Positions 14,311-24,204 are shown, counted from the stretch's first letter. The stretch: DNA of 64,000 bases from Calditrichota bacterium (GCA_016867835.1 VGIQ01000001.1:10094-74093); one strand, 5' to 3'. The notes: a model not told the origin generated them from the letters alone. Numbers and translations are program-made.

Positions 14311-15057
14311 ATGGGCATTCTGAAAGGGAAAACCGCCATTGTCACCGGCGGGTCGTTAGGGATCGGCGCCTCAGTCGCCCTCAAACTCGCCTCCGACGGC
14401 GCCGATGTGGCGCTCAACTACCGCAAGCATGCGGACGAAGCCGAAGCTGTCGCCGAACAGATCCGCACCATGGGCCGCCGGGCGCTGGTGATCCAGGCCG
14501 ACACATCGTCCTTTGCCGATGCCGAAGCGATGGTCGCTCGCGTCAAGGCGGAATGGGGCCGGGTGGACATCCTCGTCTGTAACGCGGGGATCACCAGAGA
14601 CGCGGTGCTCTGGAAGATGACCGAAGAGCAGTGGGACGCGGTGATCGGGACGAACCTGAAGGGCTATTTCAATTACGTCCGCGCGGCTGCGCCGGTGATG
14701 CGCGAGCAGAAGTACGGGCGGATCGTCTGCGTCACCTCGATCAATGGGCTGCGCGGCAAGTTCGGCCAGTCGAACTACGCGGCCTCCAAAGCCGGCATCC
14801 ACGGGCTGGTGAAGAGCGCCGCCAAGGAATTAGGGCGGTCGGGCGTCACCGTCAACGCCGTCGCGCCGGGGATGATCCTGACCGATATGATGGCTGCGCT
14901 GCCGGAGGAGGTCAAGCAGAAGGCGGTGGACGAGACGGCGGTGGGCAGATTGGGGGAGCCGGACGACATCGCGCATGTGGTCAGTTTCTTCTGCAGTGAC
15001 TTCGCAAAGCATGTGACGGGGGAGATTATCAAGGTGGATGGGGGGCAGTATATCTGA
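14311..15057 (+). CDS. short-chain dehydrogenase/reductase (3-oxoacyl-ACP reductase-like; candidate hydroxyacyl-CoA dehydrogenase)
   Basis: TGGSLGIGASVA (TGxxxGIG), NAG, and Y..K catalytic motif (SNYAASKAG). 248 aa. Confidence 0.85.
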   Translation: MGILKGKTAIVTGGSLGIGASVALKLASDGADVALNYRKHADEAEAVAEQIRTMGRRALVIQADTSSFADAEAMVARVKAEWGRVDILVCNAGITRDAVLWKMTEEQWDAVIGTNLKGYFNYVRAAAPVMREQKYGRIVCVTSINGLRGKFGQSNYAASKAGIHGLVKSAAKELGRSGVTVNAVAPGMILTDMMAALPEEVKQKAVDETAVGRLGEPDDIAHVVSFFCSDFAKHVTGEIIKVDGGQYI

Positions 15058-15069
15058 CTTGATCTCCAT

Positions 15070-15250
15070 TCGCCCCCCCTTTGATTCCCCCCCGCAGAGC
15101 GGGGGGGAGAGAAGGCAGAAGCGCGCCTGCGACTATTACTCCCCCGCGCAAAGCGGGGGGGAGTGAAGATGGAACGTTGTAGTGTATTCGCAACCGCCTG
15201 ACAAGGGGGCAAGACGCTCTACTCCCCCGCGCAAAGCGGGGGGGAATTAA
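15070..15250. repeat. three GC-rich hairpin repeats (CCCCCGC-N4/5-GCGGGGG), two of them near-identical 27-mers (TACTCCCCCGCGCAAAGCGGGGGGGAG)
   Basis: Hairpins at about 15083-15103, 15138-15162 and 15220-15244. The same hairpin core occurs 4x in tandem inside the CDS at 19552-19712. Confidence 0.7.
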
Positions 15251-15264
15251 AGGGGGGGCTGGAT

Positions 15265-15702
15265 GTGCATTGGAGTGGAATTAGGGATGGAAAATCCCCA
15301 ATGAGAGCAATCCCAAAGCGCTTGCCTAAAACTAAGCCTCATTCCGTCAATTTCGCCCGCAGCCTACGCCGTAAGATGACTGACGCCGAGCGGCGGCTGT
15401 GGGCAAGGCTGCGGTCAGGGCGAATAAGCGCCAAATTCCGGCGTCAGGAGCCTATCGGATCTTACATCGTGGACTTTGCTTGCATAGAAAGAGGATTGGT
15501 CATAGAACTTGACGGCTCGCTGCATTACACCGATGAAGGCAAGAAGAGGGATGAAGTTCGGGACGCCTACCTGCGGTCGTTGGGATTCATGGTGTTGAGG
15601 TTCTCAGATCGGGATGTGATGAACAATATCGAGGGGGTATGTCAGGCGATCCTTGAGCAAGTTCAATGGAAAAACGAAGAAAAGGAAGAGTCAGGAAAAT
15701 GA
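15265..15702 (+). CDS. DUF559 / Vsr-like endonuclease-domain protein
   Basis: MTDAERRLWARLR ... KFRRQEPIGSYIVDFACIERGLVIELDGSLH is the DUF559 signature. Lower GC than neighbours. The start could be M at 15301. Confidence 0.7.
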   Translation: MHWSGIRDGKSPMRAIPKRLPKTKPHSVNFARSLRRKMTDAERRLWARLRSGRISAKFRRQEPIGSYIVDFACIERGLVIELDGSLHYTDEGKKRDEVRDAYLRSLGFMVLRFSDRDVMNNIEGVCQAILEQVQWKNEEKEESGK

Positions 15703-16886
15703 GTAACATCCTCGCCCTATCCGCTTGCCGGACTCCGATGGGGTCGTTCGGCGGGACGCTGAAGGATATGGCATCCTACGACATCGGAGCCGTGGCTGTG
15801 AAGGCCGCCGTCGAGCGCGCCGGACTGACGCCGGAGCAGATCGACGACGTGATCCTTGGCTCGTGCCGTCAAGCCGGCAATGGGCCTAATCCGGCTCGCA
15901 CGGCATCCGTCCGGGGCGGCATCCCGACCTCGGTGCCGGTCATCACCCTCAATATGGCATGCCCGTCGGGGATGCGAGCCATCCAGTTCGCGGCTAATGA
16001 AATCGCCTCCGGGATGGCTTCCACGGTGCTGGTCGGCGGCTTCGACTCGATGAGCACCATCCCCTATCTCCTTAAGGGAGCGCGCTGGGCTGGGTTCAAG
16101 ATGGGCGACCGCAAACTGGAAGACGGCTGGTCCGACGCCACCGACCCGCTCATCGGGCAGGGCATGGGCGCCACCGCTGAAAACCTCTTCGACAAGTGGC
16201 AGATCCCCCGCCGCGACCAGGATGAGTACGCGGCAGCCTCGCACATCAAGGCGCATACCGCGTGGGAGAACGGCTGGTTCGACGAGGAGGTTGTCCCCAT
16301 CACCTTCCCGCCCGACAAGAAGACCGGTGAGTCGGTGGTCTTCGCCAAAGACGAGACGATCCGCTTCCCTGTGGATGCCGAGAAGATGGGGAAACTGCCG
16401 CCGGTTTTCCGTAAGGACGGGACGGTAACAGCGGGCAATGCCTGCGGGATGTCGGACGGGGCTTGCGGGTTGGTGCTGACGTCATCAGAACGCGCTTCGG
16501 AACTGGGCGCCAAACCGCTCTTTTCGGTGGTCGAGATGGCATTCACCGCCACCGAACCGGCAACTATGGGCGAAGGTCCCGGCATCGCTATCCCTGCGGT
16601 GCTGAAGAAAGCCGGGATGACCCTTTCCGACATCGACCTGATCGAAGTCAACGAAGCCTTCGCCATTCAGGTGCTGGTGAACGAAAAGATGGTCGGCTGG
16701 GACCGGGATAAACTGAACATCCACGGCGGAGCCATCGCGTTAGGGCATCCGACCGGCATCTCGGGCGCGCGGATCGCGGTGACGCTCTATCATGCGCTGA
16801 AGCGGCTGAATAAGGAGATCGGGCTGGCTTCAATCTGCGGCGGAGGAGGTGTGACCGGGGCAATGATCATCAAGAGGGAAAACTAA
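15699..16886 (+). CDS. acetyl-CoA C-acyltransferase (thiolase II)
   Basis: MSNILALSACRTPMGSFGG at the N-terminus. Cys region NMACPSGMRAI. C-terminal GHPTGISGARI and ICGGGGVTGAM. Preferred start is ATG at 15699 (GGAAGAG/AGGAAA upstream) rather than 15666. Confidence 0.85.
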   Translation: MSNILALSACRTPMGSFGGTLKDMASYDIGAVAVKAAVERAGLTPEQIDDVILGSCRQAGNGPNPARTASVRGGIPTSVPVITLNMACPSGMRAIQFAANEIASGMASTVLVGGFDSMSTIPYLLKGARWAGFKMGDRKLEDGWSDATDPLIGQGMGATAENLFDKWQIPRRDQDEYAAASHIKAHTAWENGWFDEEVVPITFPPDKKTGESVVFAKDETIRFPVDAEKMGKLPPVFRKDGTVTAGNACGMSDGACGLVLTSSERASELGAKPLFSVVEMAFTATEPATMGEGPGIAIPAVLKKAGMTLSDIDLIEVNEAFAIQVLVNEKMVGWDRDKLNIHGGAIALGHPTGISGARIAVTLYHALKRLNKEIGLASICGGGGVTGAMIIKREN

Positions 16887-17366
16887 CCACAAAGGCACAA
16901 AGAACACAAAGACTTTCTTGTCATAAATGATAGAGATCATTCCTGAGGATATAGACCTGACCGGCAAGAATTTGTTGATGCGGCCTTTCAGGTTCACAAA
17001 GCGCTTGGGTCGGGGCTTCTTGAATCAGCCTACGAATCCTGCATCGCGCATGAGATTGTGTCGCGAGGGCTCGATGACAAGACGCAGGTGATTCTTCCCG
17101 TCATCTACAAAGGAGTCAGGATCGATGCGGGATTTCGATTGGATTTGGTCGGCGAAGACAAGGTCATGTCGAACTGAAGGCGGTAGAAGAACTCCACCTG
17201 ATTCGTGAAGCACAATTGATCACATATCTTCGACTCTCGGGCATTCGGCTTGGTTTCCTAATGAATTTCAACGCTAAACTTATTAAGAACGGAATTAGGC
17301 GAATTGTAGTATGATAAGTTTCCTCGAAACATATTCTTAGTGTTCTTCGTGCTCTTTGTGGTAACA
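16884..17366. repeat. palindromic gene-junction repeat, copy 2, with halves split by a ~420-bp insertion (GxxExxY pseudogene)
   Basis: Left half ACCACAAAGGCACAAAGAACACAAAGA at 16887-16913. Right half TTAGTGTTCTTCGTGCTCTTTGTGGTAAC at 17338-17366. The two halves are reverse complements. Confidence 0.65.
16927..17330 (+). pseudogene. GxxExxY-family (PD-(D/E)xK nuclease-like) gene disrupted by at least two frameshifts
   Basis: Frame 1 gives AAFQVHKALGSGLLESAYESCIAHEIVSRGL ... RIDAGFRLDLVGEDKV, then a stop. The conserved continuation VELKAVEELHLIREAQLITYLRLSGIRLGFLMNFNAKLIKNGIRRIVV is in another frame. The N-terminal DLTGK... is also out of frame. Confidence 0.6.
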
Positions 17367-17371
17367 TCCCG

Positions 17372-17827
17372 ATGGAAATCTACGAACGCAATATAAACGC
17401 TGCGGTCCGGCGCGACGGAGACGATCATATCGTCACCAAAGCCTCGCTGCTTGACCTGAACCACAACATGCGAGTCGAAATCCGCGTCTGCATCGCCAAC
17501 CGGACGGTCGTCGCAGCCGAGGCGCAAATGGTGAAAGCCCCCTTTGGCATCTGCGACCAGACCGCCGCCTTTGCCCGCAATTTGACCGGACTCAGGATCG
17601 AGCGGGGCGTAACGCGCAAAGTCGCCGAAGTGATGGGTCGGTCGTCGGGCTGCACCCACCTTTACGAACTGGCCATCGAAGCCGTGCGCCTATCATCGAA
17701 TGTGCTGTTAGGCTTCGAAACCGGCGACCGCGAATGGCGTGAACGGCGCTTGACAGACGAGGAGTTCATCGAGCGGGCGAAGGGATTCCTGGCCAACTCT
17801 TGCCTGCCGTTTAGAATTGAAAACTAA
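17372..17827 (+). CDS. hypothetical protein (possible DUF2889-like; SGCTHLYEL motif)
   Basis: 151-aa ORF between two palindromic junction repeats. Family assignment is from memory of a Cys/His motif only. Confidence 0.4.
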   Translation: MEIYERNINAAVRRDGDDHIVTKASLLDLNHNMRVEIRVCIANRTVVAAEAQMVKAPFGICDQTAAFARNLTGLRIERGVTRKVAEVMGRSSGCTHLYELAIEAVRLSSNVLLGFETGDREWRERRLTDEEFIERAKGFLANSCLPFRIEN

Positions 17828-18738: not shown

Positions 18739-20025
18739 GTGTTTTCTCAATTCAAATCCTGGTATGAAGAACGGCACGCTTACGCTAAAGGGTGGAAGGC
18801 GCGCACCGGCGGCAAAGTGATGGGCTGCTTTTGCAGTTATGCCCCCGAGGAAATCCTCGTCGCGGCGAACTGGCTCCCGGCGCGCGTGTTAGGCGGTCAC
18901 CAGCCCCAGGACGTCGCCGAAAAATATATGTTCGGGATGTATTGTCCCTTTTCCCGCGACGTCCTGGCGCAAGGGCTTAAAGGGCGCTACGACTATCTCG
19001 ACGGCATCCTGCTGACGCAAAGTTGCATTCACCTGCGGCAGTCGTTCAACTCATGGCAGATGCACGTTCCGGTGCCGTTCAATTACTACATCTATATGCC
19101 GCAGAAGGTTCAGACGCCTCATGCAGTGCCCTATCACCGGAGCGAACTGGCGAAGTTTCGCGCGGCTCTGGAGGCCTACGACGGGACAACGCTAAGTGAA
19201 GACGACCTGAACCGCGGCATCGCCGTCGTCAACGAGAACCGCCGCTTGATGCGCGAAGTCTATGAGTTTCGCAAAGGCGACAGCCCCAAGGTGACCGGCA
19301 CCGAAGCGATGTGGATGACCACCTCGAGCATGTGGGTTGATAAGGAGGAACATTCCGCCGAACTGCGGCGGGTGCTGAAGGAACTGCCCAACCGAAGCCT
19401 TACCCGCCAGACCGGGGCGAAATTGATGATCATCGGCTCGGAGAACGACGACATCCCGTTCATCGAGATGGTCGAAAAGGTCGGCGCGACGGTGGTGATG
19501 GACGAACACTGCACCGGGACGCGGTATTTTTGGAATCAATGTGAGGTTCCCCCCCTTCAATCCCCCCCGCTCAGCGGGGGGGAAGTGCGCGAGGATAAAT
19601 CCCCCCCGCTTAGCGGGAGGGAAGTGCGCGAGGATAAATCCCCTCCGCTTAGCGGGAGGGAAGTGCGCGAGGATAAATCCCCCCCGCTTAGCGGGGGGGA
19701 CGAGAAGGGGGGGCGCGACCTGATGACCGCGATCGCCCAGCGCTACATCGACCGCCCGACCTGCCCGGTGAAAGACTGGGAGGATCGCACCCGCTTCGAG
19801 CATATCCTGCGTCTGGCGCGGGAGTGGGAGGTGCAAGGCGCCATCATCATCCAGCAGAAGTTCTGCGACCCGCACGAGTGCGACATGGTGCCGCTAAGAG
19901 CCTTCCTGAACGAGCACGACATCCCGAACCTGATGCTCGAGTTCGACGCTACCACGCCGCTGGGGCCGTTTAGGATCAGGGTAGAAGCGTTCTTGGAGAT
20001 GATCGGGCAGGAGGAGTTGTTTTGA
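18739..20025 (+). CDS. 2-hydroxyacyl-CoA dehydratase / benzoyl-CoA reductase subunit family protein (HgdB/BcrB-like), carrying an in-frame 4x13-aa repeat insertion
   Basis: GTG start. Family-typical Cys-containing N-terminal region (GCFCSYAPEEIL ... LTQSCIHLRQS) and C-terminal FCDPHECD. 428 aa. Confidence 0.65.
   Translation: MFSQFKSWYEERHAYAKGWKARTGGKVMGCFCSYAPEEILVAANWLPARVLGGHQPQDVAEKYMFGMYCPFSRDVLAQGLKGRYDYLDGILLTQSCIHLRQSFNSWQMHVPVPFNYYIYMPQKVQTPHAVPYHRSELAKFRAALEAYDGTTLSEDDLNRGIAVVNENRRLMREVYEFRKGDSPKVTGTEAMWMTTSSMWVDKEEHSAELRRVLKELPNRSLTRQTGAKLMIIGSENDDIPFIEMVEKVGATVVMDEHCTGTRYFWNQCEVPPLQSPPLSGGEVREDKSPPLSGREVREDKSPPLSGREVREDKSPPLSGGDEKGGRDLMTAIAQRYIDRPTCPVKDWEDRTRFEHILRLAREWEVQGAIIIQQKFCDPHECDMVPLRAFLNEHDIPNLMLEFDATTPLGPFRIRVEAFLEMIGQEELF
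19552..19712 (+). repeat. 4 tandem copies of a 39-bp unit (AAGTGCGCGAGGATAAATCCCCCCCGCTTAGCGGGAGGG) inside the CDS, each containing a CCCCCGC-TTAG-GCGGG hairpin
   Basis: Translates in frame as SPPLSGGEVREDK / SPPLSGREVREDK x4. Copies differ at 1-2 positions. The hairpin core is identical to the intergenic repeats at 15070-15250. Confidence 0.8.
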
Positions 20026-20068: not shown

Positions 20069-20137
20069 TATTGCTTTGGAGGGGTATAGGTGTTATCTTT
20101 CAGAAAATCAGAATTTCTGAACGGTAGAGGGATTACA

Positions 20138-20407
20138 ATGAAAGTTCAACTACGTTCGAGACGCCAGATCACGCTTCCGGAAGAGGCGGTCAGCGAGTTG
20201 GGAATCAATGAGGGGGATGAGTTCATCGTGAAAGTCGAGGGCGATTCGCTGCGCCTGCTGCCGGTCGTTACCATTCCTCGGGATGAAGCCTATCTCTTCA
20301 CACCGGAATGGCAGAGGGCGCTTCAAACCGCCGAGAAGGAACTGCGCGAGGGCGAATACGAGACCTTCGCGAGCGTCGATGACCTGCTGAAGGACCTGAA
20401 CGACTGA
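20138..20407 (+). CDS. AbrB/MazE/SpoVT-family antitoxin
   Basis: MKVQLRSRRQITLPEEAVSELGINEGDEFIVKVEGDSLRLLPV is a swapped-hairpin AbrB-type motif. The ORF could start at 20090. Its stop overlaps the next start (ATGA). Confidence 0.6.
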   Translation: MKVQLRSRRQITLPEEAVSELGINEGDEFIVKVEGDSLRLLPVVTIPRDEAYLFTPEWQRALQTAEKELREGEYETFASVDDLLKDLND

Positions 20408-20673
20408 TGCAGATCATCCGGCTGAGTCAATTCAAGCGGATGTGGAAGAAACTGCCTGCGGACGTTCAGGCGAGGGCAGCGAAAGCGATCCGCCTGCTTG
20501 CCGCCGACCGGTCGCATCCGTCGCTTGGCTTGAAGCGGCTGCAACGGCTGCCTCAATACTTGGAGGTGCGCATCGACCGCGACCACCGGTTGATATGCCA
20601 GATGGGGAGCGAGGTTATCGTGCTGGTGGCGGTAGGGAGGCATGAGGTGTTGGGGAGGGTGAGGCAAAAGTGA
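20407..20673 (+). CDS. RelE/ParE-superfamily toxin (type II TA)
   Basis: 88-aa basic protein translationally coupled to the antitoxin. The pattern LPADVQARAAKAIRLLAAD ... YLEVRIDRDHRLI ... VLVAVGRHE resembles the RelE/ParE fold. Confidence 0.5.
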   Translation: MQIIRLSQFKRMWKKLPADVQARAAKAIRLLAADRSHPSLGLKRLQRLPQYLEVRIDRDHRLICQMGSEVIVLVAVGRHEVLGRVRQK

Positions 20674-20737
20674 AGCTAAACATCATCATTCCTTCGGAAG
20701 ATGGAATTCAGATCTACATTTCTTTGTAAAAACAGGA

Positions 20738-21742
20738 ATGAAGGCACTTTATTCAAATTGCATTTTCTGCGGCTGCGACTTAGACGAGACCAATAGATCT
20801 CGCGAGCATATCGTTCCACAGATCATAATGGGATCATTCATCAGTCAAGATGTCTGCAGATGCTGTAACAGCAAATTGAGCGAGGCGGATAAGCTTATAC
20901 TGAATGATCCACGGATTATTCAAGCTATAAACTGTCTTGAACTTTCTGATATTCAAAATAACATCCTGAGAATAGGTGAAACCATAGGAACAGATACACA
21001 GGATGGCGCCGAAAGAAGGTTTCATATGAAGGATGGGCACCCTATACTTATTCCCAAGCCATCTTTTACGGGTGAAAGAGTCGCGGATATAGATAACACC
21101 TTGCCTCTACTGCGCACATTGTTATCCAGAGACAAGGAGCTGAATTGGCCAAACGAAAAGGCAGGCCGATACATCGGTGAAATCGTAACGCCAGAATTTC
21201 TCAAACTCAAGCCGCATGAGAGTATCGATCTTCGAGAAGCGGGATACTCAATCGAAATGAGGCAGATTGGAAACATAGAGACACATTTTCCTGCCATTTC
21301 GTTTCAAGATCATAGATTGATCGCTAAAATAATATACGAGATCAGTTTCTATCTGCTTTCGCCCGAGATCGCTGAGTCAGCGATGAAAGATCTTGACTAT
21401 TATAGAGATGTAGCTTACGGAAGTATTGAAAGAGAAGAAGGCAGATTGTTTACAAGATCGGTGGAGCTTCTTAACGAACCCAACTATCTTCATAGGATTC
21501 AGATCTCATTCTCTGCCTCAAGCTTTCTTACGGTTGACATCGACCTCTTTGCAAGTGTAAACTATCACGCTATCATCAGAACTGATAGAACCTATCCGCT
21601 GCCAATTCTAAATTCCCGGCAGGTTACCGCTGTCGGGTTGGGGATGACCTTTAACGATACATCGAATAGACACTTTGCGATAAGGTACTTCAATGATGCA
21701 GATTGGGCGGTCGAAAGATTCGATGACGGAGAAGAACAGTGA
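20738..21742 (+). CDS. HNH-endonuclease-domain protein with ~270-aa uncharacterised C-terminal region
   Basis: CIFCGCDLDETNRSREHIVPQ ... CRCCNSKLSE is the HNH motif (CxxC, catalytic His in EHIVP, second CxxC). 334 aa. The region is markedly AT-richer than the window. Confidence 0.65.
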   Translation: MKALYSNCIFCGCDLDETNRSREHIVPQIIMGSFISQDVCRCCNSKLSEADKLILNDPRIIQAINCLELSDIQNNILRIGETIGTDTQDGAERRFHMKDGHPILIPKPSFTGERVADIDNTLPLLRTLLSRDKELNWPNEKAGRYIGEIVTPEFLKLKPHESIDLREAGYSIEMRQIGNIETHFPAISFQDHRLIAKIIYEISFYLLSPEIAESAMKDLDYYRDVAYGSIEREEGRLFTRSVELLNEPNYLHRIQISFSASSFLTVDIDLFASVNYHAIIRTDRTYPLPILNSRQVTAVGLGMTFNDTSNRHFAIRYFNDADWAVERFDDGEEQ

Positions 21743-22890
21743 CAATATCAACCCAAATGATCAATACTTGGACAGCTTCTTGGAAGCAACTGAGATACCT
21801 CGAGCGAGTGGGAGCATTACTTGCCATAGCAACTCTGACCGCCTCCTTATTTTATTGGGCGGGGAATGGATTCGCCGAGATACAAAATACACTTGGCTAC
21901 TATCCATCTGGAGTTGAAGAAGCGCTAGAGCAAAACCGCGAACTGGACCTAAAATATCCAACACGCCCGGGTCTAAGCAAGGATCTGGGAGAGGTTGCGG
22001 GAGTCTTGCTTTTCTTCATCGGAATTTGTCTAATCTTGTCATTGATTGATGCAGCCGTGAAATTGCCAATCTTGGCGGGATTGTTGGTCGCCCCAATATC
22101 TTTCCTATCGGGCAAGGGAACCACACATGAATACCTCATTCTATCCTTGCTCAACAATAACGCTATTGGTGGCAGAGGCGTGCTTTCACTTATCATGATA
22201 ACGCTTTCCGGAGTATTTGCGATGAGGGCTTTTCGGAAATCTTGGAGATTAAATTTCTCATTGCTAACTGCACTTGGAGTATTCGCGTCTTGGATAGGTA
22301 ATTTCATGGGTCAAGAATACAGCTATCGCGCCGGTATTTTGACGGCAGCTGCTGGAATTCTCCTTATCATAGCGCCAAAATCACTTAGGGATTCTTGTCT
22401 GACTTCCATCGAAGTGACTGGCGAAATATCTAAAGGTAGGCTTGACAGCTTGATTCAAAAAGCCACATTGTCTACCAGAATATTTGGCATTGCCTATTCT
22501 ATTCTTGGGCTTATTCTTGTTCTGGGAGTTGCAGGAACTATGGGAGATGAGTTTCTACAAGGAATCAAGAGAGGGGCACCTGTTAGTGATTCAAGCGGAA
22601 TCTTAGTGCTGGCCGTCATTCAGATATTGATAGGGATAGCTTTGCTTATGCTCTCTTTGATATCATCTAATCCAGCAATGCGGCGTCGATATCAGTTTTC
22701 CATCATCATAGGGATCATCTGGATCTTATTGCCTTATGAGGCACTTGACTTGTTAGCCCGATTGACCGATCCCGGCTTAAATGCTTTTGTAAAACTGTTG
22801 ACGTCTATTGGAATGATTATTGTACTCAAGACCGCAATTAGAGCTCGGGACGCCATTTATATGAATGTCAGCAATTCCAAGGAAACATAA
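21739..22890 (+). CDS. polytopic membrane protein (about 8-10 predicted TM helices), unknown function
   Basis: GTG start overlapping the upstream stop (GTGA). Repeated hydrophobic helices (VGALLAIATLTASLFYW, VLLFFIGICLILSLI, LPILAGLLVAPISFL, ILLIIAP, IFGIAYSILGLILVLGVAG, ILVLAVIQILIGIALLMLSLI, IIIGIIWILLPY, IGMIIVL). Low GC. Confidence 0.6.
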   Translation: MTISTQMINTWTASWKQLRYLERVGALLAIATLTASLFYWAGNGFAEIQNTLGYYPSGVEEALEQNRELDLKYPTRPGLSKDLGEVAGVLLFFIGICLILSLIDAAVKLPILAGLLVAPISFLSGKGTTHEYLILSLLNNNAIGGRGVLSLIMITLSGVFAMRAFRKSWRLNFSLLTALGVFASWIGNFMGQEYSYRAGILTAAAGILLIIAPKSLRDSCLTSIEVTGEISKGRLDSLIQKATLSTRIFGIAYSILGLILVLGVAGTMGDEFLQGIKRGAPVSDSSGILVLAVIQILIGIALLMLSLISSNPAMRRRYQFSIIIGIIWILLPYEALDLLARLTDPGLNAFVKLLTSIGMIIVLKTAIRARDAIYMNVSNSKET

Positions 22891-22911: not shown

Positions 22912-24204
22912 ATGTCCACCTACCCCACCGAACCCCTGAAGTGCTGGGCTAAAGCCAAGGAACTTCGGGATAACTACTATCGCGACTACGCCACCGCCCA
23001 CGAGTGCGGCGGGTTGCGCTGGACCGGCGGCGCTTGGTCGTTCGACGCCATCCCCGCCGGGCTAGGGCGCGACGTCTGGCCCATCACCGGCGAGCCTTAC
23101 GGCGCGTCGATGGCCTTCAACAAGCCATTCAGCCAGCGCGCCCTCGAAGCCGCCGAAGCCAAGGGCTGGGCGCGCGATCTCTGCAGTTATATGCGCAACT
23201 ACTGGGGGTCGATGTATCTCGACGAGTTCAACTTCGGCGGGAAGTATCCGAAGCCCGACTTCGCCTTTCAGGATCATATCTGCTGCTCCCACGCCAAGTG
23301 GTATCAGCATGTCGCGGAATACAAGCAGATCCCCTACTTTTGTATCGACGTTTCGGTCGGTCCCTATCACCTGATCGACGACCACAAACTGAACTTCGTC
23401 GTCGGGCAGATGCACGAGTCGATTGACTTCCTCGAGCGCATCACCGGCCGCCGCTACGACGACGAACTGCTGATCGAAGCGGTGCAGAACGAGACGCGAG
23501 CCACCTCCGCCTGGGCCGAGGTCTGTGCCCTCAACAAGGCGATCCCGGCACCGCTCGACGAAAAGACGATGTATTCGCTCTACGTCCTCGGGACGCTCAA
23601 CAAGTCGAAGAAGGAGTTCGCCGACTTCTACGAGGAATTGCGGGACGAGGTTGCCGACCGCGTGGCGCGCGGCATCGCTGCCGTTCCGAGCGAGCGTTGC
23701 CGGCTGATGTCCGATACCCAGCCGCCGTGGGGCTTCTTGAAGATATTCCGCTACCTCGAAGGCTTCGGCGCGGTCTCGGTCGGGAGCCTTTACACCTTCG
23801 CCCTAATCGGCATCTGGGAAGAGAAGCCGGACGGCAGTTGGGGCGCGCGGACAACTCCGATGGCCCTCGGCTTGCCGATGGATACCCGCGATCAGGCGCT
23901 CCGGATACTGGCGGACTGGAACCTCTCCAAACCCGAATGGCAGCATTTCTATGACGCAAGTTTGAAGTCGAAGATGATGCTGCGGATCGTCAAGGAATGG
24001 AAACTCGACGGCGTCATGCTGCACCTGAATCGCGGCTGCGAAGGCCTCTCCTGCGGCATAATGGAAAACCGCCTCGCCATCGCCGAAGCCGGCGTGCCGG
24101 TGATGACCTTCGAAGGCAATATGGGCGACGAGCGGGAGTTCGACGAAGCGAAGACCAAAGACCGCATGGATGCGTTCATGGAGACGCTGGGACTTAGGAA
24201 TTAA
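22912..24204 (+). CDS. 2-hydroxyacyl-CoA dehydratase / benzoyl-CoA reductase subunit family protein (HgdA/BcrC-like)
   Basis: [23 protein letters not shown] and [10 protein letters not shown] are Cys-motif regions typical of the HGD-D family. 430 aa. Confidence 0.65.

Follow-up and report, generated by a model that had tools for sequence, protein, structure and literature searches.

The window, that is the whole stretch of 64,000 nucleotides analysed here, belongs to a Calditrichaeota MAG and carries a bzd-type benzoyl-CoA operon; the product of its thiolase gene matches P0241, a protein named as from a Calditrichaeota bacterium, at 100% identity. In this operon, a palindromic repeat element (E1) and an intact DUF559 nuclease gene lie between a short-chain dehydrogenase (SDR) gene and a thiolase gene, and a second element of the same family (E2) is found further downstream, inside a coding gene. 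The features considered below are the following.

14311-15057, + strand: SDR gene, upstream backbone gene of the bzd-type operon (Pfam adh_short_C2, E 1e-62)
15072-15259, no strand assigned: E1, discrete palindromic repeat element of 188 nt with 38-nt terminal inverted repeats
15072-15110, - strand: left end of E1, with C-arm, G-arm and mirror G-arm, class II intrastrand-triplex type (triplex-motif detector; matches the end pattern of the genome scan)
15138-15164, no strand assigned: internal hairpin of E1, ACTC5GC-gcaaa-GCG7AGT, a 26-nt exact duplicate of the right-end hairpin
15222-15259, + strand: right end of E1, triplex-type motif on the gene strand, 41 nt 5' of the DUF559 ATG (triplex-motif detector)
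15301-15702, + strand: DUF559 gene, intact, encoding a YcjD-like, Vsr-fold PD-(D/E)XK nuclease of 133 aa (Pfam PF04480; ATG at 15301)
15693-15702, + strand: AGGA ribosome-binding site of the thiolase gene, inside the DUF559 3' end, and stop/start overlap (direct sequence reading)
15699-16886, + strand: thiolase gene, downstream backbone gene (Pfam Thiolase_N and Thiolase_C)
19548-19714, no strand assigned: E2, same element family, in-frame in bzdN (18739-20025), with a net gain of 54 residues
19548-19584 (- strand) and 19678-19714 (+ strand): triplex-type ends of E2 (triplex-motif detector)

The interval between the SDR and thiolase genes

E1 begins 14 nt past the end of the SDR gene (15057). 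The original prediction, made on the same DNA, had described three hairpins after this gene, two of them identical 27-mers. Three C5-7GC…GCG7 hairpins are indeed present (15086-15109, 15138-15164 and 15221-15245), and the second and the third share an exact stretch, which measures 26 nt and not 27 (15137-15162 and 15220-15245). Throughout the 64-kb window the pattern CCCCCGC-N3-9-GCGGGGG occurs five times (15089, 15141, 15224, 19564 and 19681); shuffled sequences gave an expectation of 0.01, and none of 100 shuffles reached five. The arms of the E1 inverted repeat, I1 (15072-15109 and 15222-15259), are 87% complementary, and the element reads GC7-tttgat-tC7GC-aga-GCG7 ... C5GC-gcaaa-GCG7-aattaaa-G7C. 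The folding energy of E1 as single-stranded DNA is -67.4 kcal/mol (z = -8.3), and that of E2 as RNA is -121.7 kcal/mol (z = -8.1). No terminator-like site was detected in the search for intrinsic terminators between 14800 and 15900, no Rfam family matches E1 or E2 beyond chance hits below threshold, and no direct repeats indicative of a target-site duplication flank E1, E2 or the DUF559 blocks shared between contigs that are described below.

The adjacent gene was predicted to be an intact DUF559 gene, richer in AT than its surroundings and abutting the thiolase start, and each of these points is borne out. Specifically, the ORF (15265/15301-15702) matches the Pfam DUF559 profile with E 2.7e-36 and 124 bits (cut-off 20.6) over positions 5-108 of 109; the ATG at 15301 is homologous to the start MSRAIKKRLP of relatives, an alternative in-frame GTG being found at 15265; and the GC content is 0.485-0.55 across the ORF versus 0.62-0.66 in the neighbouring genes. 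The TGA of DUF559 (15700-15702) overlaps the thiolase ATG (15699-15701) as ATGA. Because of this overlap, and of the thiolase AGGA lying within the DUF559 3' end, the continuity of the operon is preserved.

The protein scored 85 bits with the NCBIfam YcjD equivalog model, under the 218-bit cut-off, and is therefore a YcjD relative and not an equivalog. Its Pfam matches are limited to DUF559, MTES_1575 and DUF2726. There is no match to Vsr (PF03852), and the neighbours are the SDR and thiolase genes, with no adjacent cytosine-5 methyltransferase gene; membership in Vsr very-short-patch repair is accordingly not met. A sequence search of solved structures recovered PDB 3HRL (E 1e-21) as the only one, leaving Vsr (1cw0) and I-Bth0305I (3r3p) undetected. 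In an alignment of 20 sequences D58, E69, D71 and H75 are invariant; all are present in the window protein, which meets the expectation for Vsr-like active-site acidic and histidine residues. In the same alignment the near-invariant Q74 of the ELDGSQH motif is replaced by L in the window protein (15520-15522), and judging from this substitution the enzyme may be inactive, or its activity reduced or altered. A role as a defence system was considered and rejected, as PADLOC gave only a marginal DpdF match (E 9.5e-4).

The region is identical in contigs from two other samples (L001 and L002; independent assemblies), so the locus is not an assembly artefact. In related bzd operons the backbone genes are constant and the small accessory genes between SDR and thiolase differ: the slot holds an unknown 367-aa gene, HicAB with others, or DUF559. 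SDR orthologues in three of these operons (L035, L039 and L042) are 64-81% identical, and gap genes across the related operons comprise 23S_rRNA_IVP, TerB, HicAB, GNAT, IS elements and unknowns. The order SDR-[element]-DUF559 occurs in four operons, the window and three related ones, among which DUF559 is ~60% identical versus 72-81% for the backbone genes. By their backbone genes these four are not mutual closest relatives, and gain and loss of DUF559 are therefore indistinguishable; a single ancestral insertion common to the window and L042 was discarded, since the two are not sisters according to their backbone genes. No clean empty site could be identified. In the nearest relative (L135-L138, thiolase 89% identical), considered as a candidate for the window slot, the thiolase gene is preceded by IS elements or an unknown gene, and the SDR side is off-contig.

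A small selfish insertion had been proposed at this place. The varying contents of the slot support an insertion, but on the evidence of the same arrangement in three other operons, at ~60% protein identity, it is old and not recent. The hairpin array is a complete element, E1, and not the end of a DUF559 transposon.

E1, E2 and solitary copies compared with known repeats

The hairpin family was also predicted to recur in the gene starting at 18739, and E2 does have the same end architecture. This gene is bzdN, encoding the bzd-type benzoyl-CoA reductase subunit N. The BzdN protein has 428 aa in the window versus 374 aa in homologues, and the 54 extra residues (...PPLQSPPLSGGEVREDK...) are placed between YFWNxCE and DRMTAIA, in a variable loop. 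The two closest homologues (P0122 and P0123, 85% identical) are without the insert, and two others have shorter inserts of 44 nt and ~50 nt at the same place. Within E2, a 39-bp unit is present three times (window 19585-19701), encoding SPPLSGREVREDK repeats. Internal tandem amplification was also observed in L003, L032, L042, L049 and L133; with tandem internal units in E2 and in several loci, these elements behave like variable-number tandem repeats.

A scan for the end pattern of E1 and E2, using one genome per species, retrieved 32 loci in Calditrichaeota, Anaerolineae, Chromatiaceae and others. None of the 32 has a DUF559 gene within the ~0.5-8 kb of flanking sequence per locus, and most motif copies are thus solitary. 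In the solitary elements the order is C-run/hairpin ... hairpin/G-run, a permutation of the flanks of the gene; the gene therefore lies between elements and not inside one. Several strict-motif matches (L006, L010, L015 and L018) lie at contig termini and contain long poly-G or poly-C stretches; they were disregarded as probable artefacts of sequencing or assembly.

About a dozen of the solitary copies in other genomes sit within long ORFs without breaking the frame. In particular, in-frame C7/G7 elements were noticed in long conserved ORFs of other phyla (L016, 886-917; L017, 3763-3795; L020, 95-127; also L012, L013 and L027). The element of L016 interrupts a PurQ-like glutamine amidotransferase, and orthologous proteins of a Chromatiaceae genome and a Sedimenticola genome share the position of one C7/G7 element. 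Such in-frame copies, among them E2 with its 54 extra residues in a benzoyl-CoA reductase subunit, show that proteins can be remodelled by repeats of this class.

The hairpin class itself has already been described. BoxC/PIT/TMECO repeats have been known since the 1990s, with thousands of copies catalogued, and their lineage of description is said to run through Bachellier in the 1990s and Hoyne and Maher in 2000. BoxC of E. coli was described anew, first as PIT elements and later as TMECO "intrastrand triplex motifs", of which K-12 contains 23 and a set of 262 proteobacterial genomes 3610 (Holder et al. 2015, PMC4666352). According to the same study, single strands of the TMECO motif adopt a stable triplex in vitro, which was not detected in vivo; PIT/TMECO repeats have no promoter or terminator activity; and their sites are hot spots of local instability (PMC4666352). 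Its authors found no transposase, integrase or common flanking function near TMECO, and the paper is silent on ycjD, DUF559 or any endonuclease (PMC4666352). The TMECO consensus is CCCTCNCCC-N3-6-GGGNGAGGG-N3-GGGNGAGGG (PMC4666352). TMECO is reportedly absent from Salmonella.

Like these repeats, the elements described here consist of a pyrimidine arm, a short loop, a complementary purine arm, a short loop and a mirror purine arm, and they are G/C-rich, present in many copies, often arranged as inverted 'palindromic' pairs and locally variable. Using a three-block detector, exactly four triplex-type sites were found in the window, namely the ends of E1 and E2, and all four have the three blocks that define the motif (pyrimidine arm, complementary purine arm and mirror purine arm). 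The literal TMECO consensus is not met: the window ends read C7GC-N3-5-GCG7-N5-7-G7, with C7/G7 homopolymer arms, a GC clamp and a second loop of 5-7 nt instead of CCCTCNCCC...N3. E1 and E2 are thus a G/C-rich triplex-type motif and not strict TMECO. The TMECO survey covered Proteobacteria, whereas the window variant extends beyond them, to Calditrichaeota, Anaerolineae and other phyla; it is also found in-frame in coding genes, while the TMECO copies of E. coli K-12 were reported to be intergenic without exception. Only hairpin folding was computed for these elements, and triplex formation would be an inference from the strand polarity of their third block, which fits purine-motif geometry.

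In their in-frame location, E2 and the dozen or so solitary copies in ORFs resemble Rickettsia palindromic elements (RPE) and BRE, the in-frame repeats of Betaproteobacteria (PMC3110155). E2 meets the corresponding criterion, as a repeat within a conserved gene that keeps the frame and is absent from homologues. The sequence family is nevertheless different, and BRE of Bordetella was rejected as a member of the same family, sharing only a hairpin followed by a G-run. To our knowledge, neither RPE nor BRE has a nuclease partner. A further comparison concerns MITEs such as Chunjie in Geobacter uraniireducens, which is reportedly inserted in operons without disrupting them. E1 is likewise a small element with terminal inverted repeats between operon genes, with read-through preserved, and it satisfies the MITE criterion of inverted termini and small size (38-nt arms, 87% complementary, 188 nt). 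Unlike MITEs, it shows no target-site duplication, and no cognate DDE transposase was found for it; the criterion of a target-site duplication and a cognate transposase with matching ends is not met, the sole linked gene being the DUF559 nuclease, outside the element.

Linkage of DUF559 relatives to the hairpin motifs

At all six loci of the nearest DUF559 relatives (L042, L043, L044-46, L133 and L134), elements adjoin the gene on both sides, and in L042 no such elements occur elsewhere in 8.8 kb. In L042, L133 and L134 an end of the form ...G7-aattaaa-G7-9 is located 5-9 nt before the ATG, and in L043 and L044 the DUF559 ORF runs into the downstream element (…PPFIPPREPGGR*). The window copy has no downstream element, and the tail of its ORF enters the ribosome-binding site of the thiolase gene. 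With this element missing, a longer pre-ATG spacer than in relatives and L in place of Q74, the window copy looks old and partly decayed.

The analysis was extended to 80 metagenomic loci carrying DUF559 relatives at 43-57% identity, with GC contents of 0.33-0.70. Perfect stems of >=8 bp were present upstream of the gene in 66% and downstream in 77% of these loci, compared to 4% of 2224 background windows. When pyrimidine-arm/purine-arm hairpins were counted, they appeared upstream of 58/77 DUF559 genes versus 2/120 other genes of the same loci (Fisher p = 1.5e-30), and downstream of 57/78 versus 6/151 (Fisher p = 4.4e-29). A three-block triplex detector, modelled on the definition in PMC4666352, found the motif just upstream of the gene and on the gene strand in 53/70 loci, and just downstream on the opposite strand in 54/72; elsewhere it occurs at 0.13 per kb. 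The literal TMECO pattern was found in 20 of the 80 loci, and about a quarter of the DUF559 relatives have no detectable motif.

The flanks obey an orientation rule. The G-run follows the upstream hairpin, on its gene-proximal side, in 40/60 cases, often 4-28 nt before the DUF559 ATG, and a C-run precedes the downstream hairpin in 44/58. The right end of E1 has the position and orientation that are canonical for the motif upstream of DUF559 relatives. In addition, the upstream flank resembles the reverse-complemented downstream flank of the same locus (median score 36) far more than that of different loci (median score 19; p = 1e-18), and the loops of the two flanks of one locus are also mutual reverse complements. 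The flanking repeats belong to each host genome's own variety. Between genomes the stems differ by compensatory changes (C7GC/GCG7 versus C6-7GG/CCG6-7), and the structure is therefore under selection. Two otherwise unrelated contigs, L049 and L060, share only a 532-nt hairpin-DUF559-hairpin block, at 89.5% identity, and the pairs L104/L115 and L048/L083 behave in the same way, with shared blocks of 470-530 nt. Viral-contig loci repeat the pattern (11/17 upstream and 6/14 downstream). Phages as a vector were ruled out, only 23 relatives being found in 2.9 million viral contigs. The attribution of L105-type loci to E. coli was also rejected.

All together these data indicate that the association between DUF559 and the repeats is solid; its mechanism is inferred. 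The original prediction had left to be checked whether DUF559 genes are consistently flanked by the repeat, and this is the case for the 6/6 nearest loci and for most of the metagenomic relatives tested with the detector (53/70 upstream, 54/72 downstream). It had further called for a census of the motif, with ubiquity of the motif and absence of linkage to DUF559 together being regarded as a refutation. Here the answer is divided: the 32 end-motif loci are all without a nearby DUF559 gene, while the loci of this DUF559 subfamily are bracketed by repeats.

Some loci depart from this picture. In N. gonorrhoeae (L128), NGO0050, the only relative with a solved structure (3HRL), is flanked by two hairpin-containing repeat copies that are direct and not inverted. 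In Deinococcus proteolyticus (L129) the gene lies inside an element (C-run/hairpin upstream, hairpin/G-run downstream), the opposite of the canonical arrangement. Because of these two cases, the canonical arrangement has exceptions. At the Sinorhizobium dsbA-smc site, S. meliloti Ak57 (L132) keeps only the 5' third of DUF559 in comparison with Sinorhizobium sp. K101 (L131), the deletion of ~350 nt ending exactly at the hairpin of the downstream element. This suggests that the hairpins are deletion end-points. The Ak57 site had been considered as an empty site and was rejected, being a deleted DUF559 remnant.

The window protein and YcjD of E. coli share 47% identity. The E. coli gene conforms to the pattern: its ORF terminates within a degenerate hairpin, and ~190 nt further downstream there is an exact TMECO type A motif. 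ycjD is present in 3378 of 5426 complete E. coli genomes (62%), and the sapF-fabI site is occupied either by ycjD or by the eef efflux operon (L130 and L162). The ycjD-less genomes were excluded as examples of an empty site, as they have the eef operon there instead. In an evenly spread sample, TMECO-like places reached a median of 17 in genomes with the ycjD locus (range 11-26, n=37) versus 8 in genomes without it (range 1-13, n=23; p = 2e-9). This copy-number difference supports a link between ycjD and the repeats, but it is only suggestive, since it is confounded by phylogroup and uncorrected.

A proposed repeat-plus-nuclease module and its alternatives

The arrangement recalls the REP/REPIN-RAYT systems, in which a single- or low-copy nuclease gene is flanked by cognate palindromic repeats with many dispersed non-autonomous copies, the repeats often forming inverted pairs whose sequence varies by lineage with the architecture kept. 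Of the traits that define REPIN/RAYT, a flanked nuclease gene with many solitary repeats elsewhere is present and a HUH Y1 transposase is not: unlike RAYT, a HUH tyrosine transposase (Y1), DUF559 has a PD-(D/E)XK Vsr fold of ~115-135 residues, the window repeats are without the GTAG head of REP, and no activity has been shown for DUF559. By this analogy the DUF559-repeat system may, at most, work like REPIN/RAYT without being a member. As to fold clan, DUF559 is placed with Vsr (1cw0) and I-Bth0305I (3r3p), in the latter of which the Vsr-fold domain acts as a homing endonuclease (PMC3424549). The two proteins show that the domain can nick DNA and can be put to selfish use; in contrast to them, no cytosine methyltransferase gene adjoins DUF559, nor is it hosted by an intron or intein.

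We propose, with a probability of about 0.5, that a repeat-plus-nuclease module comparable to REPIN/RAYT has long occupied this locus, a variable slot of the Calditrichaeota bzd-type benzoyl-CoA operon. The anatomy, the family assignments, the statistical linkage, the orientation rule and the inverted-repeat symmetry are observed; that the nuclease acts on the repeats, and how, is inferred, and there is no biochemical or genetic evidence of binding or cutting. E1 is an inverted pair of G/C-rich hairpin-plus-G-run motifs of the BoxC/PIT/intrastrand triplex class, in its C7/G7 variant, and YcjD-like DUF559 genes in many phyla are bracketed by the motif on the gene strand upstream and by its reverse complement downstream. 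In the proposed scheme, the nuclease would recognise and nick the folded or extruded repeat, be it a hairpin, a cruciform or a triplex-like form. By nicking, it would set the spread, the tandem amplification and the turnover of the repeats in motion or sustain them, much as RAYT transposases do for REP/REPIN. The majority of the copies would then lack autonomy and be dispersed, some of them in-frame within proteins, such as E2 in bzdN. The window ORF has been fused to the thiolase start, so that the operon still reads through.

Several points speak against the module. A nuclease alone cannot carry out strand transfer, and copying would have to be borrowed from host replication or repair. There is no target-site duplication and no clean empty site, the gene lies between and not inside elements, and 0/32 strict end-motif loci have DUF559 within the locus. 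Roughly a quarter of the relatives lack the motif, Deinococcus proteolyticus has the opposite arrangement, and Q74 is L in the window protein.

A more general form of the hypothesis, which we put forward tentatively and with somewhat less than even confidence, is that YcjD-like DUF559 is the missing trans-acting partner of the BoxC/PIT/intrastrand-triplex repeats. These would form a pan-bacterial Vsr-fold repeat-nuclease system, parallel to REPIN/RAYT, with non-autonomous copies colonising genes in-frame, and the window would hold one nuclease and its cognate C7/G7 repeats. The DUF559 family is very large; a structure has been solved (3HRL), and we know of no role for it. Literature searches retrieved no paper linking DUF559 or ycjD to intrastrand triplex repeats. 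The link could explain the origin of the repeats: a strong physical connection across phyla gives the repeats and DUF559 a candidate partner each. It is directly testable in E. coli K-12, ycjD being non-essential and variably present.

The main rival explanation is that the gene targets pre-existing repeats. These would have spread for other reasons, and a separate selfish or homing-type DUF559 cassette would insert next to or between them, or recombine in through dispersed repeats serving as portable homology arms. Insertion beside repeats is known from IS1397 and ISKpn1 with BIMEs and from IS110-family elements with REPs. The gene does lie between complete elements and not inside them (L042, L044, L133 and L134), the repeats at its flanks are of the variety proper to each host genome, solitary repeats are in the majority, and I-Bth0305I shows the Vsr-fold domain in use as a homing endonuclease (PMC3424549). 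We nevertheless consider this explanation unlikely, as it does not account for the strict cross-phylum orientation rule (40/60 upstream, 44/58 downstream), for flanks that co-vary within a locus like the ends of one unit and not as after random landing, or for the presence of the hairpins in the ~0.5-kb blocks common to unrelated contigs.

Less probable again is a host-beneficial, structure-specific nuclease, a domesticated YcjD-like repair enzyme that would resolve or remove hairpin, cruciform or triplex structures, limit instability and stay linked to the repeats without any spreading. Vsr is a repair nickase of the same fold, and four diverged genomes have kept the gene intact at one and the same position of the operon; however, neither the bracketing of the gene by an inverted motif pair nor the movement of gene and hairpins as a 0.5-kb block is explained by repair. 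The local instability of TMECO sites (PMC4666352) would fit such an enzyme, but 38% of E. coli genomes do without ycjD, and their repeats are fewer, not more numerous.

Expression elements acting in cis find still weaker support, and we regard them as improbable. The hairpins would then be RNA-level features, either stabilising 5'/3' stem-loops or a G-run Shine-Dalgarno masked by a C-run, and the solitary copies remnants of lost cassettes. The G-run 4-28 nt before many ATGs, the purine arms resembling GGAGG and the location of the window hairpins in the operon transcript are compatible with this. RNA function does not require, however, that the flanks be reverse complements including their loops, and deletion of the gene would leave hairpin/G-run beside C-run/hairpin, the opposite of the solitary layout. 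Moreover, PIT elements are without promoter or terminator activity (PMC4666352), and E1 shows no terminator-like site and no Rfam family match. Both the repair and the RNA-level roles are less consistent with the inverted symmetry, the permuted solitary layout and the lower repeat counts without ycjD.

Coincidence of an unrelated tolerated repeat and a small ORF in the same slot, a permissive one that in relatives holds HicAB, TerB and 23S_rRNA_IVP genes, IS elements and unknown genes, is effectively refuted by the hairpin enrichment over other genes in the same loci (p ~1e-30) and by the triplex-motif counts, the pattern being replicated in the viral-contig collection and in cultured species.

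Further small genes were observed in other gaps of the window operon. Between bzdN and the next HGD-D subunit gene (22912-24204), positions 20090-22890 hold four accessory genes.

20090-20407: MazE-like antitoxin
20407-20673: ParE-like toxin
20738-21742: 334-aa protein with an HNH_5 endonuclease domain
21739-22890: unknown 383-aa protein

Operon gaps of this lineage generally collect selfish or accessory genes. The gap between the thiolase gene and the DUF2889 gene (16886-17372) is AT-rich, with a GC content of 0.39-0.48 and no convincing ORF, and may be a decayed remnant; in three relatives (L035, L038 and L135) the same slot holds a 23S_rRNA_IVP gene. Genes of the 23S_rRNA_IVP family recur in several gaps of related bzd operons (L035-L042 and L133-L138), with up to three per operon in L035, and seem to be a second small gene family colonising operon gaps.
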